Source: Candidatus Aenigmatarchaeota archaeon (GTDB lineage: Archaea; Aenigmatarchaeota; Aenigmatarchaeia; CG10238-14; SCSR01). From it: a DNA stretch of 64,000 bases. Under the pieces are notes generated by a model. That model saw only the letters and a program-made list of their open reading frames with translations. It was not told where the DNA came from and made no database searches. Below are positions 32,618 to 58,909 of this stretch, one piece after another. Position 1 is the stretch's first letter. Every line of letters starts with the position of its first letter. The stretch is from positions 30,525 through 94,524 of the forward strand of contig JAWBTW010000001.1 of assembly GCA_039000165.1 (NCBI GenBank). The letters run 5' to 3'. The position numbers and the translations under genes are program-made.

Positions 32618-33423
32618 TGAAAGCAAACGTTTTTGATTTAGAAGGGAATGTTGTAGAAAAAGTAGAATTACCTAAGATTTTTGAGGAAAAGGTTAGAGAA
32701 GACTTGATACTTAGAGCTTTTCTAGCTACTATGAGCAAGAAAAGACAACCTTATGGCACGGATGTAATGGCAGGGAAAAGAAGTTCGGCACATTATCATG
32801 GAGTGAGAAGAGAAAGATGGACTATGATGAATCGTGAAATGGCAAGAATGCCTCGTTTACACGGAAAAATTTCTCCTCATCTGATGTGGCGGGCAAGGTT
32901 TGTGCCCCAAGCAGTCAAAGGAAGAGAAGCTCATCCGCCAAAAGTTGAAAAAATTTGGGAACAGAAAATAAATAAAAAGGAAAGAAGAAAAGCTATTCGT
33001 TCAGCAATAGCTGCCACTGCGATTAAGGATTTGGTCCTGAAAAGGGGACATAAAGTTGAAAAAATAGAGGTGCCTATAGTTGTTGAAGACAAAATCCAGG
33101 AAGTAAAGAAAAGTAAGGAGCTTGAGGAATTTCTCAAAAAAATTGGTCTAGAGGAGGAGCTTAAAAGAATAAGGAAAAAAAAGGTAAGAGCAGGAAAAGG
33201 AAAGATGAGAGGGAGAAAATACAGAAGAAAAGTTGGACCTTTGATAGTTATAGCAGAAGATAAAGGAATAGTTAAAGCTGCTAAAAACTTACCTGGAATA
33301 GATGTCTGTAGAGTTGAAAATTTGTCTGTTGAAATGCTTGCTCCTGGAGCACATGTTGGCAGATTGACTATATGGACAAAATCGGCTTTGGAGAGATTGG
33401 GTGAGAAAGGTGGATCCTTATAA
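32617..33423 (+). CDS. rpl4: 50S ribosomal protein L4
   Basis: [32 protein letters not shown]. Confidence 0.97.
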
Positions 33424-44632: not shown

Positions 44633-45928
44633 ATGCCAGAAAGCTTAAAAAGAGCTCTAACTTTTAAGGATGTGGTAATTCTTGGAGTTGCTATAATAAT
44701 TGGAGCAGGAATTTACAGCATAATAGGAAAAGCTGCAGGAATAGCAGGCTATTCAGTTTGGGTTTCTGTAATTTTTGCAGGAATAGTTACTTGTTTTACA
44801 GGCCTAAGCTTTGCTGAGATGACAAGCATTTACCCAAAAACCTATGGTTATTTTAAGCTGATTAAAACTGCTTTGGAAAGTATGGGAGGGAAGGTTTGGG
44901 GTTTTGTTGTTCAATGGATTTTAGTTCTAGCTTGCATTTTTGCTATCGCAACAATATCCTTAGCTTTTGCTGGCTATTTTTCAAGCTTTATTTATGTCGA
45001 CAAAGCTTTAGCAGCGGTCCTCATAATTCTTTTTTCAGCCTTTGTTTCTTATGTGGGAGTAAAGGAATCAGTAAGCTTAACAATTATTTTTTCTACAGCA
45101 GAAATTTTGGGCTTGATAGTTGTTATAGTTCTTGGAGTTTTTTTCTTAAAACCTGACGCTCAAGTTTTGCTGAAAATAAGTTTTGACTATAATGTTATCT
45201 ATGCAGCATCTCTAATATTCTTTGCTTTTACTGGTTTTGAGCTAATTCCTGCTCAAGCAGAAGAAACCCAACAAGCAGAAAAATTTGTTCCAAAAGCTAT
45301 AGTTGCTTCTATACTCATTTGCACGCTGATTTATTGTTTGGTTTCTATCGCAGTTACAAACTTATTAGAGCCTAACATGTTAGAACTTTCACAAGCTCCT
45401 TTGGTTGATGCAGTTTCAGCAAAGTTTGGAAGTAACTTTGGTTGGTTTTTATGGATTTGCGCTATAATCTCAATCGTTACAACAGTTTTAGGCGTAACTA
45501 TAACAAGCTCAAGACTTGTTTATGGTTTGGCAAAAGAAAAACTCTTTCCTGTTTTCCTTTCAAAAGTTTCTAAAAGGTTTAAAACTCCTAGTCTAGCTAT
45601 TTTCACAATAGCTTTTCTCTCAGCTATAACCACTTTTTTGATAAAAGATTTGAAAACCACGGCCGAGATTGCAAACTTCCTCACAATTCTTACTTTTTAC
45701 TTGGTAAACATTTCTGTAATAGTTTTAAGATGGACGAAGCCAAGAATACCCAGAGGCTTTAAAGTTCCTTTAAACTTTAAAAACACTCCTATACCTTCTT
45801 TAATAGCAAGCATTTTCTGCATGTTTTTGCTCTTTCATTTTCCTTTTGTAATAATTTTTAACGCAGTTTTTATCATAGGTTTAGGAATAGTTTTTTACTT
45901 TTTGACAAGGGAAAAATTTTTCGCTTAG
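44633..45928 (+). CDS. APC-family amino acid permease
   Basis: IIGAGIY, FFAFTGFE, many TM helices; ATG at 44633. Confidence 0.93.
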   Translation: MPESLKRALTFKDVVILGVAIIIGAGIYSIIGKAAGIAGYSVWVSVIFAGIVTCFTGLSFAEMTSIYPKTYGYFKLIKTALESMGGKVWGFVVQWILVLACIFAIATISLAFAGYFSSFIYVDKALAAVLIILFSAFVSYVGVKESVSLTIIFSTAEILGLIVVIVLGVFFLKPDAQVLLKISFDYNVIYAASLIFFAFTGFELIPAQAEETQQAEKFVPKAIVASILICTLIYCLVSIAVTNLLEPNMLELSQAPLVDAVSAKFGSNFGWFLWICAIISIVTTVLGVTITSSRLVYGLAKEKLFPVFLSKVSKRFKTPSLAIFTIAFLSAITTFLIKDLKTTAEIANFLTILTFYLVNISVIVLRWTKPRIPRGFKVPLNFKNTPIPSLIASIFCMFLLFHFPFVIIFNAVFIIGLGIVFYFLTREKFFA

Positions 45929-46998
45929 CTTGTAACTTCAAACTGTTTAAAAGTTTCAACAAGCTTTTTATTTTCAGGTTTTTCGAAATGCTCTCTTATC
46001 GGTTTAATTATTTTATCAAGCTCTCTTGCAACGTTTAGCTTTAAGTCTTGGGGATGGACTTTTCCTTCTCTAAAAGCTTTTTCCAGCTCTTCATAACTTT
46101 CAAAAGTTATGTTGCCGCCATACTTCCTTTCTCTTTCTACTTCAAAACTTCTGTTTTCTCGGAAAATTATGTACTTTGCAATTTCTAATACAGGATTATT
46201 TTCAACTACTTTTTCAGGGCACCAAGCCTTTCTTAATTTTTCTTCTATTTCTTCCTTTTTATCATGAACAAAGATGCAAGTCCAGGGTTTTGACTTGCTC
46301 ATTTTTGCTGCTATAGTTTTTTCTAACTTTTCTTTTGTTTTTGTTTCTGGCGGCTTAGCTAAGCCAGGGAGTAAATGGTGATGAATTGCTATGGGCTTTT
46401 TCCACCCTAGCTTAGGAAAAACTTCTCTACATAAAACATGGGCTTTTCTTTGGTCCATTCCACCATGGGCTATATCTTTGCCTAAGTATTTCACATCAAT
46501 GCATTGCAAAGGAGGATAAATAAATTGAGAAAAGTCAAGCTTTTCCTTCTCGCTTCTTCCCATTATCGTTAGGCAGCGAGTAACTCTTGGCAAAGTTATT
46601 TTTTTACAAAACCTTACCAAATCTTTCCAATATTCATCGTTGTTATGGTAAAGCTCTGAACCTAAAACAATCTCAGCTTTTGGGCAAAAAAACTTAAAAC
46701 CTTCTGCAAAATATTCAGAAGCTTTTTTTATGTTTTCCCAGTTTCCTCCTAGCTTGTTGTTGATAAAAGTGTGCCAGTCTGCAAGGAAAACTTTACATTT
46801 TATTCCTGCTTCTGCTAAATCGTTTATCTTGTAGCCGCAAATTAATAAAGTACCAATGTGTAATAAACCAGAGATTTCAAAACCTATGTAATGCTCAGGT
46901 TTGTCGTTTGTTTCTAGCAATTGTTTCAATTCTTCTTCTGTTAGTATCTCTTCTGTTGGTGGTCTTTTTATAAGCTCAAGTTTTGTTTCTAGGTCCAT
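45925..46998 (-). CDS. tyrS: Tyrosine--tRNA ligase
   Basis: YIGFEISGLLHIG, ADWH, YPPLQ, GGMDQRK, KMSKS. Confidence 0.97.
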   Translation of the reverse strand: MDLETKLELIKRPPTEEILTEEELKQLLETNDKPEHYIGFEISGLLHIGTLLICGYKINDLAEAGIKCKVFLADWHTFINNKLGGNWENIKKASEYFAEGFKFFCPKAEIVLGSELYHNNDEYWKDLVRFCKKITLPRVTRCLTIMGRSEKEKLDFSQFIYPPLQCIDVKYLGKDIAHGGMDQRKAHVLCREVFPKLGWKKPIAIHHHLLPGLAKPPETKTKEKLEKTIAAKMSKSKPWTCIFVHDKKEEIEEKLRKAWCPEKVVENNPVLEIAKYIIFRENRSFEVERERKYGGNITFESYEELEKAFREGKVHPQDLKLNVARELDKIIKPIREHFEKPENKKLVETFKQFEVTS

Positions 46999-47035
46999 AA
47001 TTTCATATTTTTTTAAATAAATTAAAAAGGATTGG

Positions 47036-47051
47036 TGTTAGACGTCTAACA
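47036..47051. repeat. 16-bp perfect palindrome, copy 1
   Basis: TGTTAGACGTCTAACA; supplies the stop of ORF 47038..47655. Confidence 0.95.
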
Positions 47052-47655
47052 TTTTAAAAAATTTATTTTTTCTTTTGACTTTTCTTGGTTTGAGTTTTGG
47101 CTTTGAAACCTCTTCTTCTACCCTTGCTACCGGAGCGATTGACTGAACTACAGCTCTTGGTTTTTTTACTGTTTTATAATTTTCATAAAGCCATATTATA
47201 AAGCAAGAAAACAAGTAGATTACTATCAGTTTAACTATGAAAAATTGTATTTCAGAAAGTGTACAATCATAGAATCGCTCAAACTCAGCAACTATAATTG
47301 AATTACTTCTTACTTCATCAGTAATAAAGCATACTACTAATCCACCAGGAAAAATTTTGGTTATCATATCCTCTGTTTCAAACTTTTCTAATAGTTGAGT
47401 ATAAATTGAGTGTTTGTGAGACCATTCCATTATCAACTTTTTAGTTTCAAGCTCCTTTTCTTCTTCCGTAAGAGTTGTGTTTGCTTGTATTAAAGTATGT
47501 TTCCAAAGGTAATTAGCCTTATCAGACAATATAGAGAGAGAAATGGTCATTATATTAATAAAGTAGTGAATAAAAATAAAAAGAAATAAATTTATGAGGA
47601 AAAAGAAAACACAAAATTTTTTCCAAGTTGGAGCCAAGAACTCCCTTGAACCCAT
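47038..47655 (-). CDS. Hypothetical membrane protein
   Basis: N- and C-proximal TM helices; ends ...MLDV* inside the palindrome. Confidence 0.65.
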   Translation of the reverse strand: MGSREFLAPTWKKFCVFFFLINLFLFIFIHYFINIMTISLSILSDKANYLWKHTLIQANTTLTEEEKELETKKLIMEWSHKHSIYTQLLEKFETEDMITKIFPGGLVVCFITDEVRSNSIIVAEFERFYDCTLSEIQFFIVKLIVIYLFSCFIIWLYENYKTVKKPRAVVQSIAPVARVEEEVSKPKLKPRKVKRKNKFFKMLDV

Positions 47656-47696
47656 AATTCTATTGTGAATTTTTATCTTATAAATATCTTAGAAAA

Positions 47697-48629
47697 TTAA
47701 AGCTCAACTATAAACATAAGTCTTTCTACAAGTTCTTTATACCTGTTCCTTATCGTTACTTCTGTGCATCTCATTTTCTCGGCCAAATCTCTTTGAGTTA
47801 TCCTTTCTCCTGTTAAAACAGAAGCTATATAAGCAGCAGCTGCTGCTAAACCAGTAGGAGCTTTCCCAAGAGTTAGCCTAGCTTGTTTAGCAGCTAAAAG
47901 TATTTTGTAAGCTACGTCTTCCGTTTTACCAGATTTACCAGCTTCATTTAATGGTCTAGAAACATACTCTCCAGGAGAAGGAGGAGGCAATTTATAGCCC
48001 AATTCTTTTACTATAAATCTATAACTTCTTCCTATTTCTGTTTTCCTAAGACCAGAAATTTCAGAAACTTGATCGATCGATCTAGGTATTCCTAATTGCC
48101 TGCATGATAAATAAACACTAGCAACAGCAAGCCCCTCTAACGACCTTCCACGTGAAATTCTTTCTTTTAAGGCTTTTCTAAGAATAAGAGAAGCGTTTTC
48201 CATGGCATTTTTTGGTAGTTCCAGTTTGTTACTTATCTTGATGATTTGATCTAAACCCAAAGCCAAGCTTCGTTCGTTAGCGTCAGAAACTCTCATCCTT
48301 GTCTGCCACTTTCTTAAGCGATAAGATGTTTCCTTTTGTTGTGGCTTTAAAGGCTTTCCATACGCATCACGATCAAGATTACTGATTGATGTCATTAGAC
48401 CCATGTCGTGAAGTGTGTAAGTTAAAGGTGCACCACTTCTTGGCCTTTTTTCTCTTTGCTCTTCGTCAAAAGCTCTCCACTCCGGACCTTTATCGTAAAT
48501 CTTTTGTGCTATAACAAGACCACAATTGCTACATACATCTTCTCCTGTGTCGTAATCTTTTATTATGTTCTTGCTACCACATTCAGGACATTTTTCGACT
48601 CTTGCTCTCAACAAAGGTTTTTCTTCCAT
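47697..48629 (-). CDS. tfb: Transcription initiation factor IIB (TFB)
   Basis: CPECGS...CSNCG Zn ribbon, GPEWRAF, two cyclin repeats, TEVTIRNRYKEL. Confidence 0.95.
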   Translation of the reverse strand: MEEKPLLRARVEKCPECGSKNIIKDYDTGEDVCSNCGLVIAQKIYDKGPEWRAFDEEQREKRPRSGAPLTYTLHDMGLMTSISNLDRDAYGKPLKPQQKETSYRLRKWQTRMRVSDANERSLALGLDQIIKISNKLELPKNAMENASLILRKALKERISRGRSLEGLAVASVYLSCRQLGIPRSIDQVSEISGLRKTEIGRSYRFIVKELGYKLPPPSPGEYVSRPLNEAGKSGKTEDVAYKILLAAKQARLTLGKAPTGLAAAAAYIASVLTGERITQRDLAEKMRCTEVTIRNRYKELVERLMFIVEL

Positions 48630-48676
48630 GCTGACTTATTCTCTAATAAGTTGTTTAATTTTAAAAGTTTTTTAGG

Positions 48677-48692
48677 TGTTAGACGTCTAACA
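48677..48692. repeat. 16-bp palindrome, copy 2 (extends to 18 bp, 48676..48693)
   Basis: GTGTTAGACGTCTAACAC. Confidence 0.95.
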
Positions 48693-48732
48693 CTTAAAAA
48701 ATTTATTCTCCATCATAATTTGCCTTTAAAAA

Positions 48733-48942
48733 TTAAACTGAAATTACTTTCTTCTCAAGAAGAATTGCTTCCCCACCTTCGTTTTTTATTCTTGTTGCTA
48801 TTAACCTTAAAGTTTTTATGTCATCGCTTTCCCAAACAGAATGCTGAATTTTTTCTGCTCTAATTGCTTTTAAAGCTCTGTTTACTTGAACTTGCAAGAC
48901 TTTTTTATCTCTTGGGATGTCGTAAATTATTATGTACTTCAT
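48733..48942 (-). CDS. Stand-alone Cas2/PaaX-central-domain-like protein (69 aa)
   Basis: YIIIYDIP ... KIQHSVW, hallmarks of the Cas2/VapD/PaaX ferredoxin-like fold. Confidence 0.75.
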   Translation of the reverse strand: MKYIIIYDIPRDKKVLQVQVNRALKAIRAEKIQHSVWESDDIKTLRLIATRIKNEGGEAILLEKKVISV

Positions 48943-48946
48943 AAGT

Positions 48947-48962
48947 TGTTATACGTCTAACA
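48947..48962. repeat. 16-bp palindrome, copy 3 (1 mismatch)
   Basis: TGTTATACGTCTAACA between the TATA-like box and the ATG of the Cas2-like gene. Confidence 0.9.
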
Positions 48963-48981
48963 AGCTTAAAAATTTTTCTAG

Positions 48982-48997
48982 TGTTAGACGTCTAACA
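48982..48997. repeat. 16-bp palindrome, copy 4
   Basis: TGTTAGACGTCTAACA; supplies the stop of the SUI1-like ORF. Confidence 0.95.
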
Positions 48998-49309
48998 TAA
49001 AAATAAAAAAAGAAGGGAGGTTAAGGAAAGTTTTTGTAAGATTTCAACAATTTTAGCAGGTTCGTGAACACCTCTGAGAACTATTTCCTTTTGGTTGATG
49101 CTACCACTAGTGTTGAGAGCTTTTTGAAGTTCTTTTAAAGCTCTCTTTCTCCACGCTTCACTTTTTGTTATTTCTCCGCTGACTATTGTACAACCATTAG
49201 ATGTTTTTTGAATCTTTACTTCGCATATTTTCTTTTCCTTCTCATCTTTAAGAGGACAAGAGCAATCTTTCTTAAGATCTTTTGGCATACCACAAGCTTT
49301 ACATGCCAT
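48992..49309 (-). CDS. Divergent SUI1/aIF1 paralogue
   Basis: CKACGMPKDL..CSC, TIVSG, ELQKAL..SGS, IVLRGVH align with the aIF1 at 36353. Confidence 0.7.
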   Translation of the reverse strand: MACKACGMPKDLKKDCSCPLKDEKEKKICEVKIQKTSNGCTIVSGEITKSEAWRKRALKELQKALNTSGSINQKEIVLRGVHEPAKIVEILQKLSLTSLLFLFLC

Positions 49310-49336
49310 TCTCCCATCCTCTCTATTCAATCAGAT

Positions 49337-49882
49337 TCATCTCATAACTTTTTTTGCAGTTTTTTTACCAGCATAGAAAAATCCTACTACTACTAATGCT
49401 GTTATTATCAGGCCTATTACAAGGAAGATTATTGCCTTAGAGCTATCTTTGCTATCTTCAACGCTTTCTATTAATGATTCGATTATTCCCATATCTTTGA
49501 TACTTTCGAACGATCTTATCCAAACGTTTATGTCCCAAAGAAGAGCTAAGGTATTGTATATCGATACAAGTATGCCTCTTAAAGACCTTGTACGTATTGC
49601 CTCTATCCATCCGTTGATAGTTATTACCACGCCAAGTAAGATTATCGGAAGCCCAACTATCACGTTTATAGGTAATAGAAACTGAGTGCTCAAGATGTTC
49701 AAAGCAATGCCCACAAGAATAAAAGTGTAGTAGAAGCCTACAAGCGCCAAAGCAAGGACAACTAAAGCTATTGCTTTTTCACCTTTCCCTTTTGAAATAC
49801 CCCAAAGAAGCCCTGAAGCATAGGCATTCCAGCACGACACAAAAAAATTCCAAGCTATGATTAGCCACAAGAGCAAATCCAT
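49337..49882 (-). CDS. Multi-TM membrane protein (start MDLLLW at 49882)
   Basis: about 5 hydrophobic helices; GGAGG RBS upstream. Confidence 0.7.
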   Translation of the reverse strand: MDLLLWLIIAWNFFVSCWNAYASGLLWGISKGKGEKAIALVVLALALVGFYYTFILVGIALNILSTQFLLPINVIVGLPIILLGVVITINGWIEAIRTRSLRGILVSIYNTLALLWDINVWIRSFESIKDMGIIESLIESVEDSKDSSKAIIFLVIGLIITALVVVGFFYAGKKTAKKVMR

Positions 49883-50026
49883 TTCTCTTTTTCCTCCACT
49901 CCTTTTTTCCTTCCCTTTTCTGGAGTTTTGCCGCTCCAGGCCTAGGGAAGAGAGGCCCTCTGGTTTTACCTTCATCGACGGAAAAAAAGAAGGGGGGAAT
50001 TATCGGGACGAGAATCCCTCATATCG

Positions 50027-51010
50027 TTATGGTTGTTCGGATGTTATTGGAATCACGTATTGTAGTTGAGGTGCGTTTATGAAAAGCGTTATTTTCCACT
50101 CTGGATGTTCTTCGGCTATTTTCTTTAAGCTATCGTAAACGTATTGAAGAGAGAGATATTGGATAGCTTGAGCAGCAGTCAGATTTTGTGAAATCAGTTT
50201 TCCTACAGCTTCGGTGGTAGCGTTAACAACTAACTCTATAGCTATTGCTTGTCCTTGTGCAACCCGAATGGAAGCTTCTCTAGTGGCATTTGCCAGTAAG
50301 AGTATTTTTTCTGCTTCCTTTTGAGCTGCTAAAAGCTCTAGGTAAGCTTTTTGAACGTTTTCTGGCGGCACTACGTTTCGGATAAATATTTTGTCAACAA
50401 TTGCTACTCTTTGTAAAGTGGTTATATTGTCAAGAAATTCTTGGGCATAATTTGTTACGGTAAGAGAGAAATATTCTCTCTTCTTGTAGACTAACTCGTC
50501 TGTTGTAAATTTCTGCCCGTAATTTCTTACAGCATCCCTTATTCCTTTTAAGACTGTTTCTTCTATTTTTCCAAATTCTCTGTAATTTTCATAAACCTTT
50601 TTGATTCTTTCTTGCCATCCTGGAGTTTCTGTATCAATATGCCAATGTACAGTTATGTCTGTAGCTATATCAGTTGCGTCTAATGTATCTATAAAGACCG
50701 CGCCATACTTACAGCCTTTTAGTGGCTCTTTTTTAGCCCTTGTTATTCCTTCAGGAGTAGTTTCTGTTGGGCTTAGCATGTCTTCTATCCTTACCGAAAC
50801 ATCGTAGTAAACAACACTTTCCCAAAAGCTTTTTTCAGCCCACCATTTTGGTCCTTTTTCTATTCTTATTACTCCGCCTACTTGGTCAGTTACTATTGCT
50901 ACTTGCCCTACGTTGATGCTGTAGTGGGTCGCTTCAAAGGTAAAGATTCCTATCAAAATTCCTACTACTAGTAGAAAGATAATGATTCCTGCAATCCATC
51001 TTTTTTCCAT
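50027..51010 (-). CDS. SPFH / prohibitin-like membrane protein
   Basis: N-terminal TM, IRDAVRNY..FTTDELV..KRE, coiled coil ending AQGQA. Confidence 0.8.
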   Translation of the reverse strand: MEKRWIAGIIIFLLVVGILIGIFTFEATHYSINVGQVAIVTDQVGGVIRIEKGPKWWAEKSFWESVVYYDVSVRIEDMLSPTETTPEGITRAKKEPLKGCKYGAVFIDTLDATDIATDITVHWHIDTETPGWQERIKKVYENYREFGKIEETVLKGIRDAVRNYGQKFTTDELVYKKREYFSLTVTNYAQEFLDNITTLQRVAIVDKIFIRNVVPPENVQKAYLELLAAQKEAEKILLLANATREASIRVAQGQAIAIELVVNATTEAVGKLISQNLTAAQAIQYLSLQYVYDSLKKIAEEHPEWKITLFINAPQLQYVIPITSEQP

Positions 51011-51014
51011 ACTC

Positions 51015-51254
51015 TCACCTCTTCTTAACCTTCTTCCTTACTGTTTTTGCAAGGAAGTAGCAGCCGTATATCGAAACTATAGACAAAACAACCCATCCCA
51101 AGATTGGTGCCCATGCTATATGCCAGTAGCCTTTCTGAATAGCTGGAAATGCGTTTAACACTAGCAAAGTCCATATAGCTACTAGCTCTATTGCTATCGC
51201 AAGTCCGATGAGTAGTAGATCTATCACTACCACTATCACTCTTTTCTCCTCCAT
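51015..51254 (-). CDS. Small 2-TM membrane protein (start MEEKRV at 51254)
   Basis: two hydrophobic helices, GGAGG RBS. Confidence 0.65.
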   Translation of the reverse strand: MEEKRVIVVVIDLLLIGLAIAIELVAIWTLLVLNAFPAIQKGYWHIAWAPILGWVVLSIVSIYGCYFLAKTVRKKVKKR

Positions 51255-51269
51255 TTTCTTCTTTCCTCC

Positions 51270-51354
51270 TTTTTCTTGCCCCACCCACGGCTGGATTTTG
51301 GGGTACGTGGGGCTTGACCCCAGGCTTAAAAGCCCTCCAGCCCACAGAAAAAAA
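51270..51354. repeat. 85-bp GC-rich intergenic repeat, copy A (structured element)
   Basis: identical to 56310..56394. Confidence 0.95.
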
Positions 51355-51362
51355 AGGGAATT

Positions 51363-51635
51363 TTAAAGAGAGAAAGCCCAAAAAAAGGCTATAGCCCATG
51401 CTATTATCACTGCTATGAAAGGAACCCTCTTGTCTTTGTAAACCATTGAATATGAGTAAATTCCTAAGGCTGCAAAGAAGCCAAAGAGCAGAAGTATGTA
51501 ATAGCTGAATACTACAGGAAACGTTTGTTGAAATTCTTAGATTCTTAGGTTAAGTCCGATTATTAGCAAGAAAGCGCACCATCCTGCCAAAAACAAAGCT
51601 GCAAAGCAAAGACTTACTATTTTACTCTTTTCCAT
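51363..51635 (-). pseudogene. 3-TM membrane protein gene with a single in-frame TAA (51537-51539)
   Basis: GGAGGTGA RBS; MEKSKIVSLCF...LNLRI*EFQQTFPVVF...FWAFSL*. Confidence 0.65.
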
Positions 51636-51902
51636 TTAGCTTCTCACCTCCTTTTTAATTTGATAACCTTGAAGAAAAACAAGAAAAGACATTCAATTCT
51701 TAACAAAAGACAACTCAAGAAAAAAATTTTCTTTTTGATTAGAAAAAACTCTACCAATTTTTCTTCAATTTTTGCTTTTTCCTTCAAGTTTTATCAAGTT
51801 AGTTGCTCTAAAGGTAAACCAAGTTTTTTCGTTTACTAAATCTTATAATTGTAAGATTCGAAAGCCTTATAAGTTTTTTTCTCAAAAAATGAAACATTTG
51901 TT

Positions 51903-53963
51903 TCACCTTTCTGGAATAAACTCAATTTTTTTCCAAGCTTCGCCTTTTTTAAAATCTTCTATGCTTGCAACGTAAAGGATTAAACCTATTCCTTTATGCT
52001 CAAAGCTATACTTTGCAGCTTGCTGTATTACACAAACTTTTATTTTTTCCGAAGAGCAAACAAAGTAAATTTCTTTTCTGGAATTCTTTATTTTTTCATA
52101 AATCTTAGCCGGAACAGCTTCAGCTATCAAGCTAACTTCAAAGTTAAACTCATTTTTTTCTATTTCAATTTTTTCTTGAGTCCTTGAAACTATTCTGTAG
52201 CCATTCAAAGTGAAAACGTTTTCCAAAAACTTTATTTCCTCTTCGCTAAACTCCTTTCTCTCATGCTTTGGCAAGGTATTGTTTCTTAAGATAAGAGCAA
52301 GCTCACCCTCATGTGTTAAGAAGTAGAATATGGCAGTTTGCTTGTAAACCTTTGCTTTTCTTGAACCGATAAAACCTATTTGGCTAAGCTTTTCTACAAT
52401 TTCGTTAAAAACTCTGCAAGACATTTTTAACTTTTTATAAAGCTCAGAAGTGTAAGAACCTTCAAAACTAGCTAAAGCTTCTAAAACTTTCCACTCGTTA
52501 TAAGTAACTCTTAAAATCTTTTTCTCAATATCTTCTTTTTCAAGCTTAAGCGCAACCTCAAAATCTTTTCTTTCTCTTTCTTTAAATTTCAAAATCTTTT
52601 CTTCCATTTCCTTTCTTAAAATTTCATCGCTTATAATTCCCCTTTCAACCAAAACTAAAGGAAACTTTATCAGGAAAGGATTTGGAAAATCAGACTTTCT
52701 TATCAAAATAAAAGCATGTCCTACAGGAAGCCTTCTCAAGTAATCTATATCTTTTTCTTCTCTTAATCCTAACATATTAGCTGCATCTTGTACGTCTGAA
52801 GAATACTTTGTATCTAAGCCCAAATTCATGTAAATATGCGTAGAAGTGTTTCCCAAGGCAGGATAGCTTACTAGAGAAGGGTGCTGATCAACGTAAATCA
52901 TTCCTATTCCTAACTCTCTAATTTCTCTGAATATCAAATCAGTTACAGCTTCTACCCCAAACTTCTTAGTTTTTTCTCTGTTCAAAACATGATGAGCTTC
53001 TTCAAGGATTATTACTCCCAAAAGCTTTTCTCTTTTGTTTGAAACAATAAGCCAATCTCTTATCCATTGCAAGATTATTTCTATGAAAAAAGTTTTGTCG
53101 TCATTGCTTAAAGAATCGAGCTCAAGTATTGTTATTTTGCCTTTTTCAAAAAAGCTTGAAGGCAAAATTCCTTTTTCACAATCAAAAATCTCTCCTGTTT
53201 CTCTCAAGCATAAAGATTCTAAAGGCCTTTTTGCAGTTGCTATCCAGTTTTTCTCTCTTGGTGAAAGCTCAGAATGTGAATATTTCTCAAGCCAATCTTT
53301 TATATCTTTTATTCTTGGAGTTTCTGGCTCAAGCTTTTTGTAGAGCTCATCTAAGGCTTTTAAGATTATGTGCCTTCCTCCTCCCAAAAGCCAGTAAGCA
53401 TGGTCAAAAACTTCAGCGAACTCTTTTATCCACTGAGAAACTTGAACTCCTTGAGGAGGAACCAAAGGATTAAACCTGAAAGGAGCAATATCTCTTCCAA
53501 CAGTGTAAACTGTTATTCTTTCTTTAAGCTCAGTAGCAAGCAAATCTCTGTAGTTTCTTTTTGAAAAGTCAAAAATTAAAATTGGGATTTCCCTTTTTGC
53601 TAGGGATTTTACAAGAAAATGAACAATATTAGTTTTTCCTGAGCCTGAAGAACCAAAAATTCCTACATGCGTTAGCAAATCTTTTTCGTTAAAAAACAAA
53701 GGGTAAAGCTCTTTCTTTCCGTATAAAATGGTTCCGAGCTCAAAATCTCCTTTTGAAGCAATTTCTTTTGGAGGAGGCTCTAGCAAAGCTGAACTTTTTA
53801 ATTCATCATCAGAAAAAATGCTTGCTTTTATTCCGTCTATTATTTCAACTATTTTTTTTCTATATTCTTCATCTCCTAGAAAATAAGCTGCCTCGAGCCT
53901 TGCTGCTTTTTCTTTCCCCAAAAAAGGAATAAGCCTTTGAATCTCTTTTGTTATTTCTTCCAT
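51903..53963 (-). CDS. HerA/VirB4/TraG-like (DUF87) P-loop ATPase with C-terminal wHTH-like region
   Basis: HVGIFGSSGSGKT, FNPL, ILEEAH, REIRELG...DQHPS. Confidence 0.88.
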   Translation of the reverse strand: MEEITKEIQRLIPFLGKEKAARLEAAYFLGDEEYRKKIVEIIDGIKASIFSDDELKSSALLEPPPKEIASKGDFELGTILYGKKELYPLFFNEKDLLTHVGIFGSSGSGKTNIVHFLVKSLAKREIPILIFDFSKRNYRDLLATELKERITVYTVGRDIAPFRFNPLVPPQGVQVSQWIKEFAEVFDHAYWLLGGGRHIILKALDELYKKLEPETPRIKDIKDWLEKYSHSELSPREKNWIATAKRPLESLCLRETGEIFDCEKGILPSSFFEKGKITILELDSLSNDDKTFFIEIILQWIRDWLIVSNKREKLLGVIILEEAHHVLNREKTKKFGVEAVTDLIFREIRELGIGMIYVDQHPSLVSYPALGNTSTHIYMNLGLDTKYSSDVQDAANMLGLREEKDIDYLRRLPVGHAFILIRKSDFPNPFLIKFPLVLVERGIISDEILRKEMEEKILKFKERERKDFEVALKLEKEDIEKKILRVTYNEWKVLEALASFEGSYTSELYKKLKMSCRVFNEIVEKLSQIGFIGSRKAKVYKQTAIFYFLTHEGELALILRNNTLPKHERKEFSEEEIKFLENVFTLNGYRIVSRTQEKIEIEKNEFNFEVSLIAEAVPAKIYEKIKNSRKEIYFVCSSEKIKVCVIQQAAKYSFEHKGIGLILYVASIEDFKKGEAWKKIEFIPER

Positions 53964-53965
53964 TT

Positions 53966-54562
53966 TTATCCACCTAAGTTTAAGTCTGAAAATAAGCTTG
54001 CTATCTTTGATTCTTCTTCGTATTGCTCTTCAAGCTCTTTTAGCTGCTTTCTTAAGGCTACTATGTCACGCCAGAAAAGAGTATTTTCCTTTCTCTTTTC
54101 CATTCTTAGCAAAGTAACGTTAAGCTTAAACTCCCTTAGCTCTTCCCTGTTTGAAATTGTTGAAATTATTTTTTCCATTTCTGCTATGTCTGAATCTATT
54201 TCTTTGTTAAACTTTGCGTTCATCTCTTCTCTTTCCTTAATAATTTGCTTGATTTCTTCTATTCTTTCCTTCAAGAACCTCACTCTATCGAACAAATTTC
54301 CAACAACTTTTGAACCAAAGAGCTCTAAAGGTTCAATTTCGGTTGATTGCATATCCTTAGCAAGCTTTTGAAGAATTGGCACGCTTATTTTCTGAATTTT
54401 TGGTTTGATTACTTTAACTTCTTCTTGTTTGTACTTTGGAATTTTTGGCAAAGCTTGAGAAGAGCTATCTTCTTTTTTCTCCACATAATCTTCGCTGTCC
54501 TTGCTCTTGTAGCTTTTTATAACTCTTTTTATTTCTTTGTCATCCAATTCATAGTATTCCAT
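53966..54562 (-). CDS. Coiled-coil hypothetical protein, coupled to the ATPase
   Basis: heptad-rich C-terminal half; 2-nt gap to the ATPase. Confidence 0.7.
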   Translation of the reverse strand: MEYYELDDKEIKRVIKSYKSKDSEDYVEKKEDSSSQALPKIPKYKQEEVKVIKPKIQKISVPILQKLAKDMQSTEIEPLELFGSKVVGNLFDRVRFLKERIEEIKQIIKEREEMNAKFNKEIDSDIAEMEKIISTISNREELREFKLNVTLLRMEKRKENTLFWRDIVALRKQLKELEEQYEEESKIASLFSDLNLGG

Positions 54563-54740
54563 ATAATCACTTATTGGTAGTTAATGAAAATTAAATTATT
54601 TAAATCTTTCGATGTTAAGACAACTAAAGACATTTTTCTTCATCTTTTCAAATTTTTTTTTCAATTCTTTAAGAAATTTGTCCAAAAAAATTGGTACAAA
54701 TGCGTCAAATTTAAAAACTTTTTTGTCATTATATTTTCAT

Positions 54741-55178
54741 ATGATAGACGAAAGAGATTTGATTATATTAAACGAGCTGAGAAAAAACGCAAGGCTTAGC
54801 TCTCGTGCCCTAGCAAAAAAAGTTGGCTTACCAATTTCTACCGTGCATAGAAGAATAAAAAGAATGGAAAAGGAAGGAATAATCAAAGGGTATTATGCAG
54901 CCATAGACTTTGAAAAGATAGGAAAGCCTATAGAAGCATTAATATTGATAAACCTTGCAGAAGGAAGAGAATATATCCCTTTAGAACAAATAAAAAAAGA
55001 GCTTAAAGGAATAGGAGAAATAATGGAAATTCTTGTTCTTCAAGGAGGAAACATTGATCTAATAACAAAAGTAAGACTTCCTAACCTTAAAAACCTTTCA
55101 TCATTTTTGGAAAACATAAGAAAGCTTGAGGGAATAGAGGAAGTTTCTTGCTCCATAGTTGCTGAGGAATTGAGTTAA
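54741..55178 (+). CDS. Lrp/AsnC transcriptional regulator (start ATG 54741)
   Basis: MIDERDLIILNEL..NARLS..LAKKVGL..STVHRRI..MEKEGIIKGY. Confidence 0.93.
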   Translation: MIDERDLIILNELRKNARLSSRALAKKVGLPISTVHRRIKRMEKEGIIKGYYAAIDFEKIGKPIEALILINLAEGREYIPLEQIKKELKGIGEIMEILVLQGGNIDLITKVRLPNLKNLSSFLENIRKLEGIEEVSCSIVAEELS

Positions 55179-55187
55179 TTTTTTAGA

Positions 55188-55203
55188 TGTTAGACGTCTA
55201 ACA
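55188..55203. repeat. 16-bp palindrome, copy 5 (extends to 18 bp)
   Basis: ATGTTAGACGTCTAACAT between convergent genes. Confidence 0.95.
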
Positions 55204-55244
55204 TAAAACAAAAAAATGGGGAAGTGGAAAGGAAGTCAAAGAAC

Positions 55245-55432: not shown

Positions 55433-56290
55433 CTAGATTATGATGAAAAAGCCCCAGTCCCTCCATGCACCGAAGCTCATCCACCACCAAGCTGCTATCA
55501 CCCAGCCAAAGAATGTTAGTTTGCCATAGCCCCATGTGTATATCCAACCGTCTCCAAGCTCTGTCTGTATTATATTTTCGATGAACCACCTTATTAAGTA
55601 TCCTACTAATGCTAATATTGCTCCGACCAAAGCTATTATTCCTGCTACAACCTTGCTAACAAGCTCTGGAATCGCTAGCAAGCCCGCGATTATCGGCCCT
55701 AAAAGCCCTGCTATGGAAGCAAAGGTTGACCTATACTTTGCATCCTCTAACATGTATTGAGGAATGTGGTGATGCTGCTTTGAAGCTCCGGTTAAAGTAT
55801 AGGCTTTGTTCTTAGCTAGTGGGTAGTAGGTTTCTATGTTGTCAGGATGGTCGTACTTAACCCAGAAATAATCGCTTCCAGGAGCTCTAACAAAAAGTAT
55901 GCTATCCCAATAGTATTTTGGCAAGCTTAAACTAGAAGTTGTTGCCATAACTCTATAGCCTGGTTCTATGAAAAGCCAGGAAGGCATAGGCACTCTAGGA
56001 AGTTTTGGTTGAGGATATATTTTTGCTATTGGATAAGGCTCAGACTTTATTGTTATCACTCTTCCTTCAACAGTAGTTTTTACTTCAATCTGGACGTAGT
56101 GTTGACCTGCTTTTATTATGTCGAACCTTTTGGCATAGACTTTGAAACCATTTATTTCAAACGTTTTTGAAGTTTCTATGGTTAAATTTGTGTTTAATAG
56201 CGAGACACTTGCATAAGTTGGCAGAGCTACACCTGAACTTAGCACTAGCAAGAGAAGCAGCGCTACTACTGCTACTTTATACTTTCGCAT
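55433..56290 (-). CDS. Secreted protein with hydrophobic Gly/Ala-rich hairpin and Trp-rich C-terminus
   Basis: signal peptide MRKYKVAVVALLLLLVLS; IAGLLGPIIAGLLA...VAGIIALVGAILALVG. Confidence 0.7.
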   Translation of the reverse strand: MRKYKVAVVALLLLLVLSSGVALPTYASVSLLNTNLTIETSKTFEINGFKVYAKRFDIIKAGQHYVQIEVKTTVEGRVITIKSEPYPIAKIYPQPKLPRVPMPSWLFIEPGYRVMATTSSLSLPKYYWDSILFVRAPGSDYFWVKYDHPDNIETYYPLAKNKAYTLTGASKQHHHIPQYMLEDAKYRSTFASIAGLLGPIIAGLLAIPELVSKVVAGIIALVGAILALVGYLIRWFIENIIQTELGDGWIYTWGYGKLTFFGWVIAAWWWMSFGAWRDWGFFIII

Positions 56291-56309
56291 TTTTCTTCTT
56301 CCCTCCTTT

Positions 56310-56394
56310 TTTTTCTTGCCCCACCCACGGCTGGATTTTGGGGTACGTGGGGCTTGACCCCAGGCTTAAAAGCCCTCCAGCCCACAGAAAAAAA
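56310..56394. repeat. 85-bp GC-rich intergenic repeat, copy B
   Basis: identical to 51270..51354 (offset 5040 bp). Confidence 0.95.
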
Positions 56395-56408
56395 GGGGAA
56401 AATGAAAG

Positions 56409-58547
56409 CTATTCCTTTTCTTCTTCCTCTTTGTCTCTCTTTTCTAGAAATTCTGTCAGTTGCTTTGCTATGAATTTTGCTGGAAGTGTTTGAGATACTG
56501 GCTTAACTATAGCCTTTATCAAAGAACCTATGCCAATTAGCACAAAGATTATTCCAACTATGCAGCAAATGTAACCTATTGCCATATCCAAGGCTGGAAC
56601 CGAGAGTAACGTCCATGAACCTATTTTCCAGTCTATTATGCCTATGGAAAGTTTTGCAAATATCAGATACTTTAGAAAGAATAAACCTAGAAAGAACGCA
56701 ACGATACCGCAAAGGATTATCGAGATAGGAAACTTGAACCTTTGCCATACTGGTATGGTTACCTCTTTTACTATCTTTTTGCCTTCTTTTGCTGCACTCT
56801 TTGCTAACTCTTTTGCCTTCTTTCTTTTGTACTCGTCTCTTGCTATTGCTCCTACTGTTACAATCATTGAAGTAATGCATACTGTTGCAAGAACCCAAAC
56901 CCAGGGACTAATTCCATGTTCACTTATTGGCTTGTCAGGATCAGAGTCTGGGTTTGGATCAGGTTTTGGGTTTGGCGGAGTTCTGTCAACTATTTCTGTA
57001 TTGTTATCTGGCAGGACTGGCGGTAAAAGTTTGAAGCTTAAGTAAGCGTTGCTTGTCACTAGCCCATCCCAAGACCTTTTCACGTAGAAAAATACCTTTC
57101 CTTCTGTTTCGCTTGCTACGCCTAGGTTTTCCACCTCAAAACTAAGCTTTTCTGTTTCATTTGGTTTTAAAGTTATAGTAACGCTAGTAGGTTTAATAGA
57201 AGCTCTTGAAGTGCTTGTGTCAGCAATAACAATCGCAGAACTTGCTGTTTTTGCGTACTGCTTCAACACTACTTCGCACTTTCTTTTCCCTGCTGCCTCT
57301 ATCTCTGAACTTCCAACCCACTTCACACTTTCTATTCTTATGTCAGCAATTGGCGGTCTATAAACCCAAGTTTCAGCAAGCTCAGTAGGAACAAAGAAAG
57401 TAACTATTGGAGCTCCGCTATAAGCACCCCATGGAATTTCCACTATTACAGCATGAGGCTCGCCGTCTTTCATTTCTATCTGCCATTTATAACCTCTTAG
57501 CCATGTTTTGGCAATGTTTCCTTGGCTTGTCATTTTATTTAGGTACCACATCAAGCTGTAGTCGCCTTCGCTTGGATAGATGGGTGGAGCTATAGGATCT
57601 CTTATAAAATTGATGTCCCAAAATCCGTCTCTTGCAACCCAACCTTTTTCTGAATCGATTATCGGATAGGCTAAATCTGGCTGCTTGAAAGGTGCTGGAC
57701 TACCTCCCACATCCTTATCGCTTACTGCACAGGGATTCCATCTTACTACACCGAACCAGAAGGTAGAGTAAGCTTTGCTGTCCTTTATGTAGCAAAGCAC
57801 GCAGCTTTTTGAAGGATAGTATACTGTGGTGGCACCATGATCATATCTTATATATTGGAGTGCTTCGCTTGTAAAAATGTAGTTCTCGTTGAAAAGGACT
57901 ATTTCAGGTACATGTGGCTCTGAGAAATCACCCTCTAGTCTACCTAAGTTTTTGATTAGTACAGGACCTTTTGGTGTGTTAACCACGAATTCCTTTTCTC
58001 CTGCCTCTGTATTGAGCGAAGCTTTGCCCATTAGAGTACCTTCTAGATAAACAGAAACTTCGAAGATTGTGTATTTTTCCCAACTAGGCTCTCCCCATTG
58101 GTAATATTTAACTACTGTTGCTGGTATAGAAACATCTTTTTCGTACCAAACGTTACCGATAAGTTTGTTCGCGCATCCTCGATAAACTTTTGGTGCAACT
58201 ATTCTGTCTTCTATTGGAGCAAGCTTAAGTAGCCTTTTGAAATAGGACTTTACTGGTTTTATTACTATTTCAACTGTTTTCTTCGTTTTTATCTTAGCTC
58301 CTTCTTCATCTTTCAAAGGCTGCGTTGTGTTTGCAGGAAGTTTTATTCTTCCCTCAAAGTTATCCATCTGGTCTACTGCTGCAGTAAAAACCCAGTAGCC
58401 CCCTCGCCAATTCCCTGAGCTATCTTCGTCACCACCTTGCAACTGAATGTTTTGCGGTGGGGTTAAAAGTGTTGCTTCGCAGCTTACTGTTAAGCTAAGC
58501 ACTAGGAAGAGAAGCAGTGCTACTATTGCTACTTTATACTTTCGCAT
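56409..58547 (-). CDS. Large secreted membrane-anchored protein
   Basis: signal peptide MRKYKVAIVALLLFLVLS, Ig-like module, PNPKPDPNPDSDPD linker, 3 C-terminal TMs. Confidence 0.75.
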   Translation of the reverse strand: MRKYKVAIVALLLFLVLSLTVSCEATLLTPPQNIQLQGGDEDSSGNWRGGYWVFTAAVDQMDNFEGRIKLPANTTQPLKDEEGAKIKTKKTVEIVIKPVKSYFKRLLKLAPIEDRIVAPKVYRGCANKLIGNVWYEKDVSIPATVVKYYQWGEPSWEKYTIFEVSVYLEGTLMGKASLNTEAGEKEFVVNTPKGPVLIKNLGRLEGDFSEPHVPEIVLFNENYIFTSEALQYIRYDHGATTVYYPSKSCVLCYIKDSKAYSTFWFGVVRWNPCAVSDKDVGGSPAPFKQPDLAYPIIDSEKGWVARDGFWDINFIRDPIAPPIYPSEGDYSLMWYLNKMTSQGNIAKTWLRGYKWQIEMKDGEPHAVIVEIPWGAYSGAPIVTFFVPTELAETWVYRPPIADIRIESVKWVGSSEIEAAGKRKCEVVLKQYAKTASSAIVIADTSTSRASIKPTSVTITLKPNETEKLSFEVENLGVASETEGKVFFYVKRSWDGLVTSNAYLSFKLLPPVLPDNNTEIVDRTPPNPKPDPNPDSDPDKPISEHGISPWVWVLATVCITSMIVTVGAIARDEYKRKKAKELAKSAAKEGKKIVKEVTIPVWQRFKFPISIILCGIVAFFLGLFFLKYLIFAKLSIGIIDWKIGSWTLLSVPALDMAIGYICCIVGIIFVLIGIGSLIKAIVKPVSQTLPAKFIAKQLTEFLEKRDKEEEEKE

Positions 58548-58909
58548 TTTTCTTCTTCCCTCCTTTTTTTATTTTCCTCATCATCTCGAGGAATTCTGCC
58601 ATAGCTCAAACTATGACTGTAAGAAGCCTCTCCTTTCCCCTAAAACTCTAAAGACAGCGCTTTTTCTTTCCCAAGACAAGTAGCTTTCAAAATTTTATAG
58701 AAGGCTATATTCTTGAGTACTTCACTTTTTTGTTTTTTTCCTTGATCTTGTTAGCCACTCTATCCAAAACGAATTTTGCACAGTCCTTTTGTAAGTGTAA
58801 ATTAGGTAAAGTAAGAGCATATGGATAATTTACTGCAAGCCATAGAAAGAAAAGTTTATAAAGGGAAAAAGGTTTTTAAATCTTTATATCTATTATTAAC
58901 TATTAAAAA

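Follow-up and report, generated by a model that had tools for sequence, protein, structure and literature searches.

A window of 64 kb from the genome of a Candidatus Aenigmatarchaeota archaeon (G000:C1:30525-94524; the genome, G000, comprises 783 kb in 25 contigs) contains a gene for a 69-aa protein of the Cas2/PaaX_M fold, P0001, surrounded by copies of a 16-bp palindrome, and the relation of the two to each other and to the borders of gene blocks is the subject of this work. A pattern scan of the whole 64 kb found TGTTAGACGTCTAACA exactly at four places (copies 1, 2, 4 and 5; Table 1) and a one-mismatch version, which begins TGTTATACG, at a fifth (copy 3), with no further matches at up to 2 mismatches; the chance expectation from 100 dinucleotide-preserving shuffles was 0.00. 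An earlier examination of the letters without database searches (the sequence-only reading) had listed the same five copies and none elsewhere in the window, and its description of their surroundings was largely confirmed. Copies 1 and 2 share GG on the 5' side and (T/C)TTAAAAAATTTATT on the 3' side, copies 4 and 5 share TAAAA(T/C)AAAAAA on the 3' side, and the stop codons that copies 1 and 4 were said to supply to their upstream genes do lie inside the palindromes. Three copies bracket the 69-aa gene as described, copy 2 lying 40 nt past its stop codon and copies 3 and 4 lying 4 nt and 39 nt before its ATG. The claim that copy 5 separates convergent genes held in part: the copy is 9 nt past the stop codon of a plus-strand Lrp/AsnC gene and the next sizeable gene is on the minus strand, but a 52-aa plus-strand open reading frame (ORF), the reality of which is uncertain, starts 12 nt downstream of it.

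Table 1. Features of the window (positions are those of the 64-kb window) and gene blocks present only in the related genome G001.
Feature	Position	Strand	Remarks
Class I Tyr/Trp-type aminoacyl-tRNA synthetase (TyrRS-type)	45925..46998	-	Pfam tRNA-synt_1b, E = 3.3e-41; copy 1 in promoter region
Palindrome copy 1 (exact)	47036..47051	.	37 nt upstream of ATG of TyrRS-type gene; holds stop of 205-aa membrane gene
Membrane-gene insertion, 632 bp, strain-specific	47065..47696	-	Gene 47038..47655, 205 aa; insertion starts 13 nt after copy 1
tfb1 (TFIIB-type transcription factor B)	47697..48629	-	Pfam TFIIB and Zn_Ribbon_TF
Palindrome copy 2 (exact)	48677..48692	.	47 nt upstream of tfb1 ATG; directly upstream of B recognition element (BRE)/TATA-like AAAAAACTTTTAAAA
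Cas2/PaaX_M-fold protein P0001, 69 aa, proposed palindrome reader	48733..48942	-	
Palindrome copy 3 (G6>T), proposed weak repressing operator	48947..48962	.	Between TATA-like box and ATG of Cas2-like gene
BRE/TATA-like box of Cas2-like gene, CTAGAAAAATTTTTAAGCT on minus strand	48963..48981	-	Bracketed by copies 3 and 4; putative promoter
Palindrome copy 4 (exact)	48982..48997	.	Holds stop of SUI1-like gene 48992..49330(-)
Palindrome copy 5 (exact)	55188..55203	.	After Lrp/AsnC gene (54612..55178, +); convergent spacer; conserved in G001
G001-only block: AcnX			1.7 kb
G001-only block: Yip1			0.7 kb
G001-only block: two small ORFs and FAD-oxidoreductase			2.0 kb
G001-only block: 69-aa ORF and DUF4143 ATPase			1.7 kb

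The arrangement in front of the Cas2-like gene recurs in its relatives. Copy 4 immediately precedes the TATA-like box, the weaker copy 3 separates this box from the ATG, and both the mismatch of copy 3 and its 35-bp spacing to copy 4 are found again in G001 and G035. Going by sequence, we read this layout, in which the strong site precedes the BRE/TATA box and the weaker, conserved one lies on the ATG side of the TATA box, as one that would bring about autorepression of the Cas2-like gene. When 34 homologue loci from 12 genomes were searched for a palindrome with arms of at least 7 nt, at most 1 mismatch and a distance of at most 70 nt upstream of the gene, 28 carried one, so that a conserved and co-varying site on the gene's own core promoter is the rule in the family. 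At the 20 paralogue loci examined, the palindrome usually ends 5-20 nt before the ATG, directly after a AGAAAAGTTTATTT-like BRE/TATA box, which the box of the Cas2-like gene in the window resembles.

The label Cas2/PaaX-like that the sequence-only reading had given to the protein proved right. Among 42 aligned family members, 21 match Pfam CRISPR_Cas2 and 21 match PaaX_M (best E = 2e-6). P0001 itself, 69 aa in an open frame of 71 aa, reaches E = 0.045 against PaaX_M (PF20803) and is below the cut-offs of the Cas2 models (PF09827, 20.8 versus 23.8 bits; TIGR01573, 21.1 versus 24.5), and a profile from the 42 members reaches Cas2 chains in PDB only at E of about 0.04. The fold was clearer from structure prediction: the AF2 model of P0001 had a pLDDT of 96.7, and nearly all of its listed Foldseek matches, the top ones included, were Cas2 (3exc, TMq 0.73). 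A homodimer was predicted with an ipSAE of 0.60 versus 0.00 for the best control (pLDDT 93; the runs share at least 94% of contacts). Of same-chain pairs with a solved structure, 20 of 30 attain this level, as does 1 of 23 proteins whose structure is a single chain; it may reflect likeness to already solved Cas2 dimers. The predicted interface is formed by beta1, residues 32-36, alpha2 and beta4, and leaves helix alpha1 free. Asp8, which is nearly invariant in the family and whose equivalent is catalytic in Cas2 nucleases, is located at this interface beside residues 32-36. With 56 clusters at 50% identity the family is a small one; nearly all of its proteins have 53-98 aa, and it was found in 37 of 61 relatives, with 0 to 16 copies per genome. 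Neither Cas1 nor a CRISPR array is present beside the 69-aa gene; the genuine CRISPR module of the genome (Cas1, an 87-aa Cas2 and an array of at least 29 repeats) is on contig C19, outside the window.

The palindrome and the protein vary together. The general form of the palindrome is TGT-nnn-A(C/T)|(G/A)T-nnn-ACA, with letters that differ between paralogues even within one genome. His, Asp or Phe at residue 34 goes with the centre AC|GT (20 loci), Arg or Lys with AT|AT (6 loci) and Asn with AG|CT (2 loci), and at residue 18, in alpha1, Val goes with GTTA (12 of 13 Val loci), Arg with GTC (5/5) and Leu with GAT (3/3). When covariation was tested with the 24 sequences left after removal of those more than 80% identical, the eight strongest of 413 residue-base pairs all fell in residues 11-21 and 34-36; kinship makes the permutation p-values of this test overstated. 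The protein of G006, a genome of another genus with 21 motif copies, is 51% identical, yet it keeps five of the six top covarying residues. In the dimer model residue 36 meets residue 36 on the axis, which therefore puts residue 34 over the centre of the palindrome, and the geometry of the covariation agrees with the model because residue 34 is central and alpha1 is free for the outer letters. From these sequence comparisons, the 16-bp palindrome is very probably the cognate site of the 69-aa protein, which would bind it as a homodimer with the two-fold axis on the central ACGT. The beta2-beta3 turn (residue 34) would read the centre, and residues 17, 18 and 21 of alpha1 the outer letters of each half-site.

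A different binder of the palindrome, such as a helix-turn-helix regulator with the Cas2-like gene as a mere target, is highly improbable in our view. The gene product might then be an RNase of the Cas2/VapD type, since passages in PMC3351183 and PMC10491678 describe Cas2 and VapD relatives as nucleases, and the near invariance of Asp8 and a ferredoxin-fold domain of 69 aa devoid of a classical DNA-binding motif would also suit such a role, while the Lrp/AsnC gene that ends close to copy 5 could be taken as pointing to another regulator. This explanation is hard to reconcile with the paralogues, because their palindromes track their own proteins within single genomes (G010 and G009) and each would require one co-varying partner; the listed neighbour genes of four G010 paralogues look mutually unrelated, and to postulate a hidden binder for every paralogue is far less economical than self-reading. 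In addition, the palindromes that can be placed are between the TATA box and the expected start and would thus be untranscribed from that promoter.

The motif is not confined to the window. In the whole of G000 there are 16 exact copies and one with one mismatch, none in addition at 2 mismatches and 19 at 3 mismatches; 12 of the 17 copies are outside the window. All 17 are intergenic in a genome of which 92% is in ORFs by a simple caller, which is crude: one copy fell in a 56-aa call, in what is actually part of a tRNA region. At up to 1 mismatch the motif was present in 13 of 61 related genomes, and a reversed control pattern in none. It was found in all five genomes of the genus, in 1 to 21 copies. 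As the sequence-only reading had expected, the motif goes with the Cas2-like family: it is present in all eight genomes that have an orthologue at least 60% identical and in 5 of the 53 others, and the paralogues carry co-varying palindromes of their own. The runs holding G000 DNA are labelled as hot-spring metagenomes. A scan of metagenomes gave at least 134 stretches with the motif, and of the 80 listed loci that were inspected (L163-L242) many are single matches in GC-rich contigs and probably due to chance; contigs of the metagenome Ga0190319 duplicate loci of G006. Five viral contigs had one exact match each, which is about chance level by a rough estimate. No Rfam family was found at the palindrome sites.

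The position of the sites in G000 relative to neighbouring genes is regular. The start of a gene or tRNA is 36-49 nt away from the site in 9 of 16 site spacers, compared with 1.5 expected from random placement in the same spacers (P < 5e-5), and in 12 of the 16 a feature ends at most 45 nt from the site, compared with 9.1 expected (P = 0.06). Eleven of the spacers are tandem, four convergent and one divergent, and the shares of divergent and convergent spacers in intergenic DNA are 35% and 14.5%, respectively. By this geometry, a site separates the end of a unit from the promoter that follows, or else separates two unit ends. The neighbours of the sites include TyrRS, tfb1, tfb2, SerRS, two tRNAs, the 3' end of 16S rRNA, a five-gene cluster and accessory genes, where SerRS, tfb2 and the five-gene cluster are named from readings of their translations. 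Within the genus the order T-run, site, A-run is seen on both sides. In G006 only the 16-bp core is shared, the flanks being unrelated up to the core and their symmetry not above chance (3.9/16 versus 4.3).

Much of this could result if the palindrome were an operator or boundary element only, the protein being a transcription factor, perhaps one that acts as a roadblock or insulator, and the link with gene indels described below being passive: exact dispersed repeats are few in so tiny a genome and the sites adjoin accessory genes, and chance breaks would arise there from ectopic or short-homology recombination and from ordinary turnover of genes. We consider this unlikely as a full account. 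The own-promoter architecture of the 28 loci and the preferred distance to starts are in its favor, as are the rarity of sites in divergent spacers and their presence in convergent ones, which fit a block to read-through, and the T-runs ahead of the site on both strands in the genus. The same promoters also keep their sites within the genus, for instance that of TyrRS in G000, G001 and G005, and orthologous sites are identical (16/16) despite drifting flanks. This constancy does not extend across genera. In G012 and G006, TyrRS lacks an upstream site. Of the 38 listed ORFs that flank the G006 sites, 32 gave no homologue in G000, and none of the homologues that were found is adjacent to a site there. 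Thus, the flanking genes do not form a regulon conserved across genera; fixed promoter positions of conserved genes were among the findings that the sequence-only reading had named as contrary to its proposal. Furthermore, the exactness of 16 of the 17 sites exceeds by far the information that a regulon of this size needs, and the loss of resemblance right up to the core in G006 is not what a set of operators alone would lead one to expect.

Some other types of element were considered for the palindrome and rejected: a bacterial-type terminator, given that the T-run precedes the hairpin on both strands, and dif, origin boxes and uptake sequences on the basis of copy number and context. Several individual sites are also worth recording. 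One palindrome is 88 nt downstream of the 3' end of the 16S rRNA gene (G000:C8:6332-7881, minus strand), and the 8.5 kb examined around that gene yielded no 23S rRNA gene. At G000:C6:33177-33409, two palindromes bracket a tRNA gene with an intron (33225-33346, minus strand), and in G001 the downstream one of these is replaced with a 6.5-kb block whose ORFs are ABC/ECF-type transporter-like by eye. In L188 and L082/L088, on G006-like contigs, three to four palindromes are spaced 32-110 nt apart with no ORF between them and adjoin a small gene pair that is RelE-like by eye; these runs may be empty slots or multiple operators.

Gene-block borders were compared between G000 and G001, a different species of the same genus, for which contig C1 (801 kb) was used; 555 kb of G000 aligned to it at 91% identity. 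Eight of the 76 indel or replacement events had an end within 35 nt of a site. A breakpoint was present in 6 of 14 site spacers versus 68 of 527 others (odds ratio 5, p = 0.007; p = 0.013 with spacers of at least 60 nt only), a count that does not capture the events at C1 77560 and C10 20496. Four blocks are present only in G001 (Table 1), each as site-block-site where G000 has a single site, so that one site is added apiece. The expectation of the sequence-only reading that related genomes would differ by gene blocks with breakpoints at the palindrome was therefore borne out. In several orthologous site pairs, such as those at C2 48337, C2 52084 and C6 44266, one flank can be identical in 25 of 25 positions while the other is unrelated from the first base past the core. 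The AcnX gene is present in 1 of 5 genomes of the genus and 8 of 118 of the order, with a nearest homologue that shares 50% identity; because of this rarity and distance, the AcnX block is regarded as an insertion. Perfect 12-nt inverted repeats form the inner ends of the block and abut both sites, an arrangement that could have been produced either by a circle with a 40-bp palindrome that crossed over inside the core or by an element with inverted ends that duplicated a 16-bp target. A 207-nt segment between two G001 sites is the remnant of a DUF4143 ATPase gene, and this ATPase family therefore occupies three site-bounded slots.

In the window itself, the sequence-only reading had regarded the membrane gene and tfb as one block between copies 1 and 2. 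Only the membrane gene (the insertion in Table 1) is variable. G001, G005 and a 36.9-kb contig from run X7 lack the insertion at this place, and run X1 contains it; no homologue of the membrane gene was found in G001:C1, and none in G002-G005 and G035 except for one 28-aa scrap. Copy 1 has a counterpart at the equivalent place in G001 and G005. In G005, G003 and G035, the neighbours across the sites around the Cas2-like gene are different. In the metagenomes, site-bounded units, with ORFs named by eye, hold an HEPN/nucleotidyltransferase-like pair, a UDG-like gene and an 84-aa gene next to SerRS, and there is one array of the form site-231 aa-site-94 aa-site with only 19-23 nt from site to ATG. 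The sites being operators only would not explain why each extra site in G001 is accompanied by an extra block, and the 19-23 nt in this array leave no room for a promoter after the site. At one paralogue locus that was compared between G010 and G034, a segment has been replaced and no clean insertion is seen.

The tfb1 gene is immediately downstream of the Cas2-like gene in G000, G001, G005 and G035, and in G012 a TFB-like ORF, read by eye, starts 18 nt after it. The upstream neighbour is SUI1-like in G000, G001 and G035, tfb2 in G005 and an 876-aa gene in G003. The tfb2 of G005 is 97.7% identical to that of G000, where it is located on another contig. The two TFB paralogues of G000 (C7:29078-30016 and window 47697-48629) each have a palindrome nearby, and the genes around the sites are very unevenly diverged between G000 and G005 (tfb2 97.7%, tfb1 69% and TyrRS 91% identity). 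Locus L160 (G035:C45:1-3776), on one contig from another genus, is a mosaic relative to G000: its left part either has 68% nucleotide identity or does not match, tfb1 has 87-94%, and the remainder has 97-98%, the last stretch spanning the Cas2-like gene, its palindromes and the SUI1-like gene, while the TyrRS protein of G035 is only 71% identical; this could be due either to transfer between genera or to a chimeric assembly.

It is also conceivable that the palindrome is a selfish element of the REP/RAYT (REPIN) type, a small mobile repeat without coding function that is copied around the genome by the Cas2-like protein, although we hold this to be very unlikely. In REP/RAYT systems the protein gene is flanked by its own palindromes and encodes an HUH Y1 transposase. 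The Cas2-like gene is likewise flanked by its own palindromes, the copies are exact, and relatives differ widely in their numbers of sites (1 to 21) and of genes (0 to 16). A weak joint in run X1 (47018 to 47059, side 21) that omits 40 nt including copy 1 would also be compatible with such an element; this joint was not used. Against copying of this kind, the fold of P0001 is that of Cas2 and not that of an HUH transposase, and neither a His-hydrophobic-His motif nor a catalytic Tyr pattern was seen by eye. The shared unit is only 16 bp with unrelated flanks, most counted paralogue palindromes are single-copy operators, and no bare element has been gained or lost among the G000 and G001 sites that were compared, all differences being accompanied by gene blocks.

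Taken as a whole, the reading that we put forward is that the palindrome is the cognate site of the Cas2-like protein, that it serves in autorepression at the gene's own promoter, and that it forms borders of gene blocks with protein-directed recombination in the core; the chances of this combination being correct in all its parts appear to us evenly balanced. The pairing of site and protein, the own-promoter architecture, the punctuation geometry and the junctions at the core were computed here. The other 13 copies in the genome would serve as punctuation, mostly 0-45 nt past a gene end and 36-49 nt ahead of the next start, and the dispersed sites would be places where blocks are inserted, lost or exchanged between related genomes. 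Recombination in or at the 16-bp core is rather likely; according to the proposal it would occur inside the core and be directed or stimulated by the bound protein. An active part of the 69-aa protein in this process is a more tentative suggestion, and like binding and repression it is something that we infer. The catalyst could be the conserved Asp8 of the protein itself or the host XerA; given the position of Asp8 next to residues 32-36 in the predicted interface, cleavage at the centre of the site is a testable idea. Both explanations that the sequence-only reading had offered would thus be partly right. Regulator sites, its alternative, describe copies 3 and 4 and nearly all paralogue sites, which are around or between the TATA box and the ATG; elsewhere, the sites resemble borders of cassettes.

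Several results weigh against this reading or parts of it. First, 68 of the 76 indel events are away from palindromes, as would be expected if the sites were operators only, and gene flux is thus mostly motif-independent; the membrane-gene insertion has a palindrome on one side only. No circular or site-to-site joint at a palindrome was found in the contigs of four hot-spring runs, which cannot prove absence. Second, switches in identity between G000 and G001 at sites were not above those in other spacers (p = 0.95). The flanks of sites are more alike between the two genomes (median 97.3% versus 92.7%, p = 6e-6), with 95-96% identity within 1 kb of the sites dropping to about 91%, but because the within-gene gradient towards the site is not significant (4/7, p = 0.19), this likeness may merely reflect conserved neighbouring genes. 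Third, no recombinase gene is adjacent to the Cas2-like gene, and in PaaX the N-terminal winged helix, not the Cas2-like domain, is taken as the DNA reader. A plain promoter-proximal regulator would be expected to lie at a fixed distance from starts, such as the 36-49 nt seen here, and the counts for co-occurrence and covariation come from kin sequences, which are not independent samples. Finally, in the 400 kb of G010 that were read (of about 600 kb), three of four countable paralogue palindromes are single-copy and on their own promoter. Because most counted palindromes in this genome are of that kind, autoregulation is suggested as the basic job of the family, with dispersal being special to the TGTTA-type subfamily. 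The TGTTA-type palindrome of G010 has five exact copies: one on its own promoter, two near RNA or synthetase genes (114 nt upstream of a gene read as ArgRS and 514 nt upstream of 23S rRNA) and two others.

There are only two tyrosine recombinases in G000, an XerA equivalog and a tRNA-adjacent integrase, neither of which is next to the Cas2-like gene. Both genes (G000:C6:43058-43870 and G000:C10:21115-21966) are within about 600 nt of a palindrome, and neither could be linked to the sites.

Comparison with known systems places P0001 between families that differ from it in important respects. With PaaX, a family of repressors that have palindromic operators (PF20803, 'PaaX protein central Cas2-like domain'), it shares a homologous domain, as the PaaX_M matches of half of the aligned members indicate, and the position of the gene among its own palindromes fits autoregulation. 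In contrast to PaaX, P0001 consists of the Cas2-like domain alone, lacks the winged helix and the C-terminal domain, and is archaeal; its sites are dispersed at gene-block borders, and the covariation points to the Cas2-like domain as the reader. With Cas2 it shares the fold, the predicted homodimer and the Asp at the end of beta1. The CRISPR repeat is duplicated when a spacer is inserted, which the change from one site to site-insert-site recalls. Unlike Cas2, P0001 has no adjacent Cas1 or array, scores below the curated cut-offs and is paired with a specific palindrome, and by its length it lacks the C-terminal segment of the Cas2 proteins of 87-101 aa. The DNA-binding domains of papillomavirus E2 and EBNA1 can serve as a working model for a dimer of this fold reading 16 bp, with the difference that the dimer interface predicted for P0001 is Cas2-like.

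Among systems that move gene cassettes, integrons are the most similar in arrangement. Here too, gene ends are followed by a short conserved palindrome, sites delimit units of one or two genes, arrays occur, the cargo is accessory and includes toxin-antitoxin-like pairs, and cassettes are present or absent with junctions at the palindrome. The differences are substantial. There is no IntI with an attI beside an array; the only close recombinase, the XerA equivalog, scores 285 bits versus 220 with its own model and 235 versus a cut-off of 265 with the integron-integrase model. The palindrome is a perfect duplex core of 16 bp, whereas an attC is a folded imperfect palindrome of 55-140 nt with the layout R''-L''...L'-R' and extrahelical bases, and the palindrome-bounded units have their own promoters and are in both orientations. 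The integron core and inverse-core consensus is GTTRRRY/RYYYAAC, and the palindrome halves GTTAGAC and GTCTAAC fit it; because the paralogue palindromes do not keep GTTRRRY, this fit of letters is probably a coincidence. A passage in PMC9668308 gives an aadA7 attC that begins with GTCTAAC, and the same source describes archaeal integrons, some of them in another order of Aenigmatarchaeota, as using canonical attCs. The palindromes can also be compared with the sites of pdif modules, since gene modules are bounded by short inverted-repeat sites in both cases, but the palindrome does not have the 11-6-11 layout of the Xer type. In the plasmids of Acinetobacter, such modules are located between XerC/D sites.

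To our knowledge, the biochemical role and origin of Cas2 itself are still unclear, although it is universal in CRISPR-Cas systems. Titles and abstracts in the literature gave no account of palindrome-paired Cas2/PaaX-like proteins in DPANN archaea or of a Cas2 domain that reads DNA. A stand-alone Cas2-fold dimer that reads duplex DNA by a simple residue-to-base code, whose 16-bp site would serve in Aenigmatarchaeota as a portable junction for the capture, excision and exchange of cassettes with promoters of their own, in an integron-like manner without an integron integrase, with insertion regenerating the site on both sides, and which might be a sister or relic of an ancestral Cas2 function, is a doubtful proposition at this stage. 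A family of free-standing Cas2-fold proteins that each have a palindrome of their own would give Cas2-like domains a concrete function in sequence-specific DNA recognition, a transcription-factor fold would be added to the sparse set of DPANN archaeal regulators, and there would be a defined DNA address at which tiny, supposedly streamlined genomes gain and shed genes. Should recombination at the site be active, this would be a new cassette system; otherwise, it would be a clean case of operators shaping rearrangement.

Elsewhere in the window, the stretch 50002-51240, which contains an SPFH/Band_7 gene, is replaced with about 3 kb of other DNA in G001 and skipped in the run X7 contig, and there is no palindrome at its ends. 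The minus-strand gene at 51903-53963 encodes a 686-aa HerA/FtsK-like ATPase with an F-93-type winged-helix domain, a combination typical of archaeal plasmids and viruses, and an 86%-identical copy is located in G003 on the contig of its Cas2-like gene. Direct repeats of 86-126 nt with 89-91% identity are found at 51243-51368, 56283-56408 and 58495-58580, at the starts of the minus-strand genes beginning at 56290 and 58547 and inside a 124-aa ORF (51025..51399). By their appearance, paralogous secreted proteins have a 5' region with a signal peptide in common here. Across these repeats, contigs from runs X5 and X8 jump back from 56287 to 51252.

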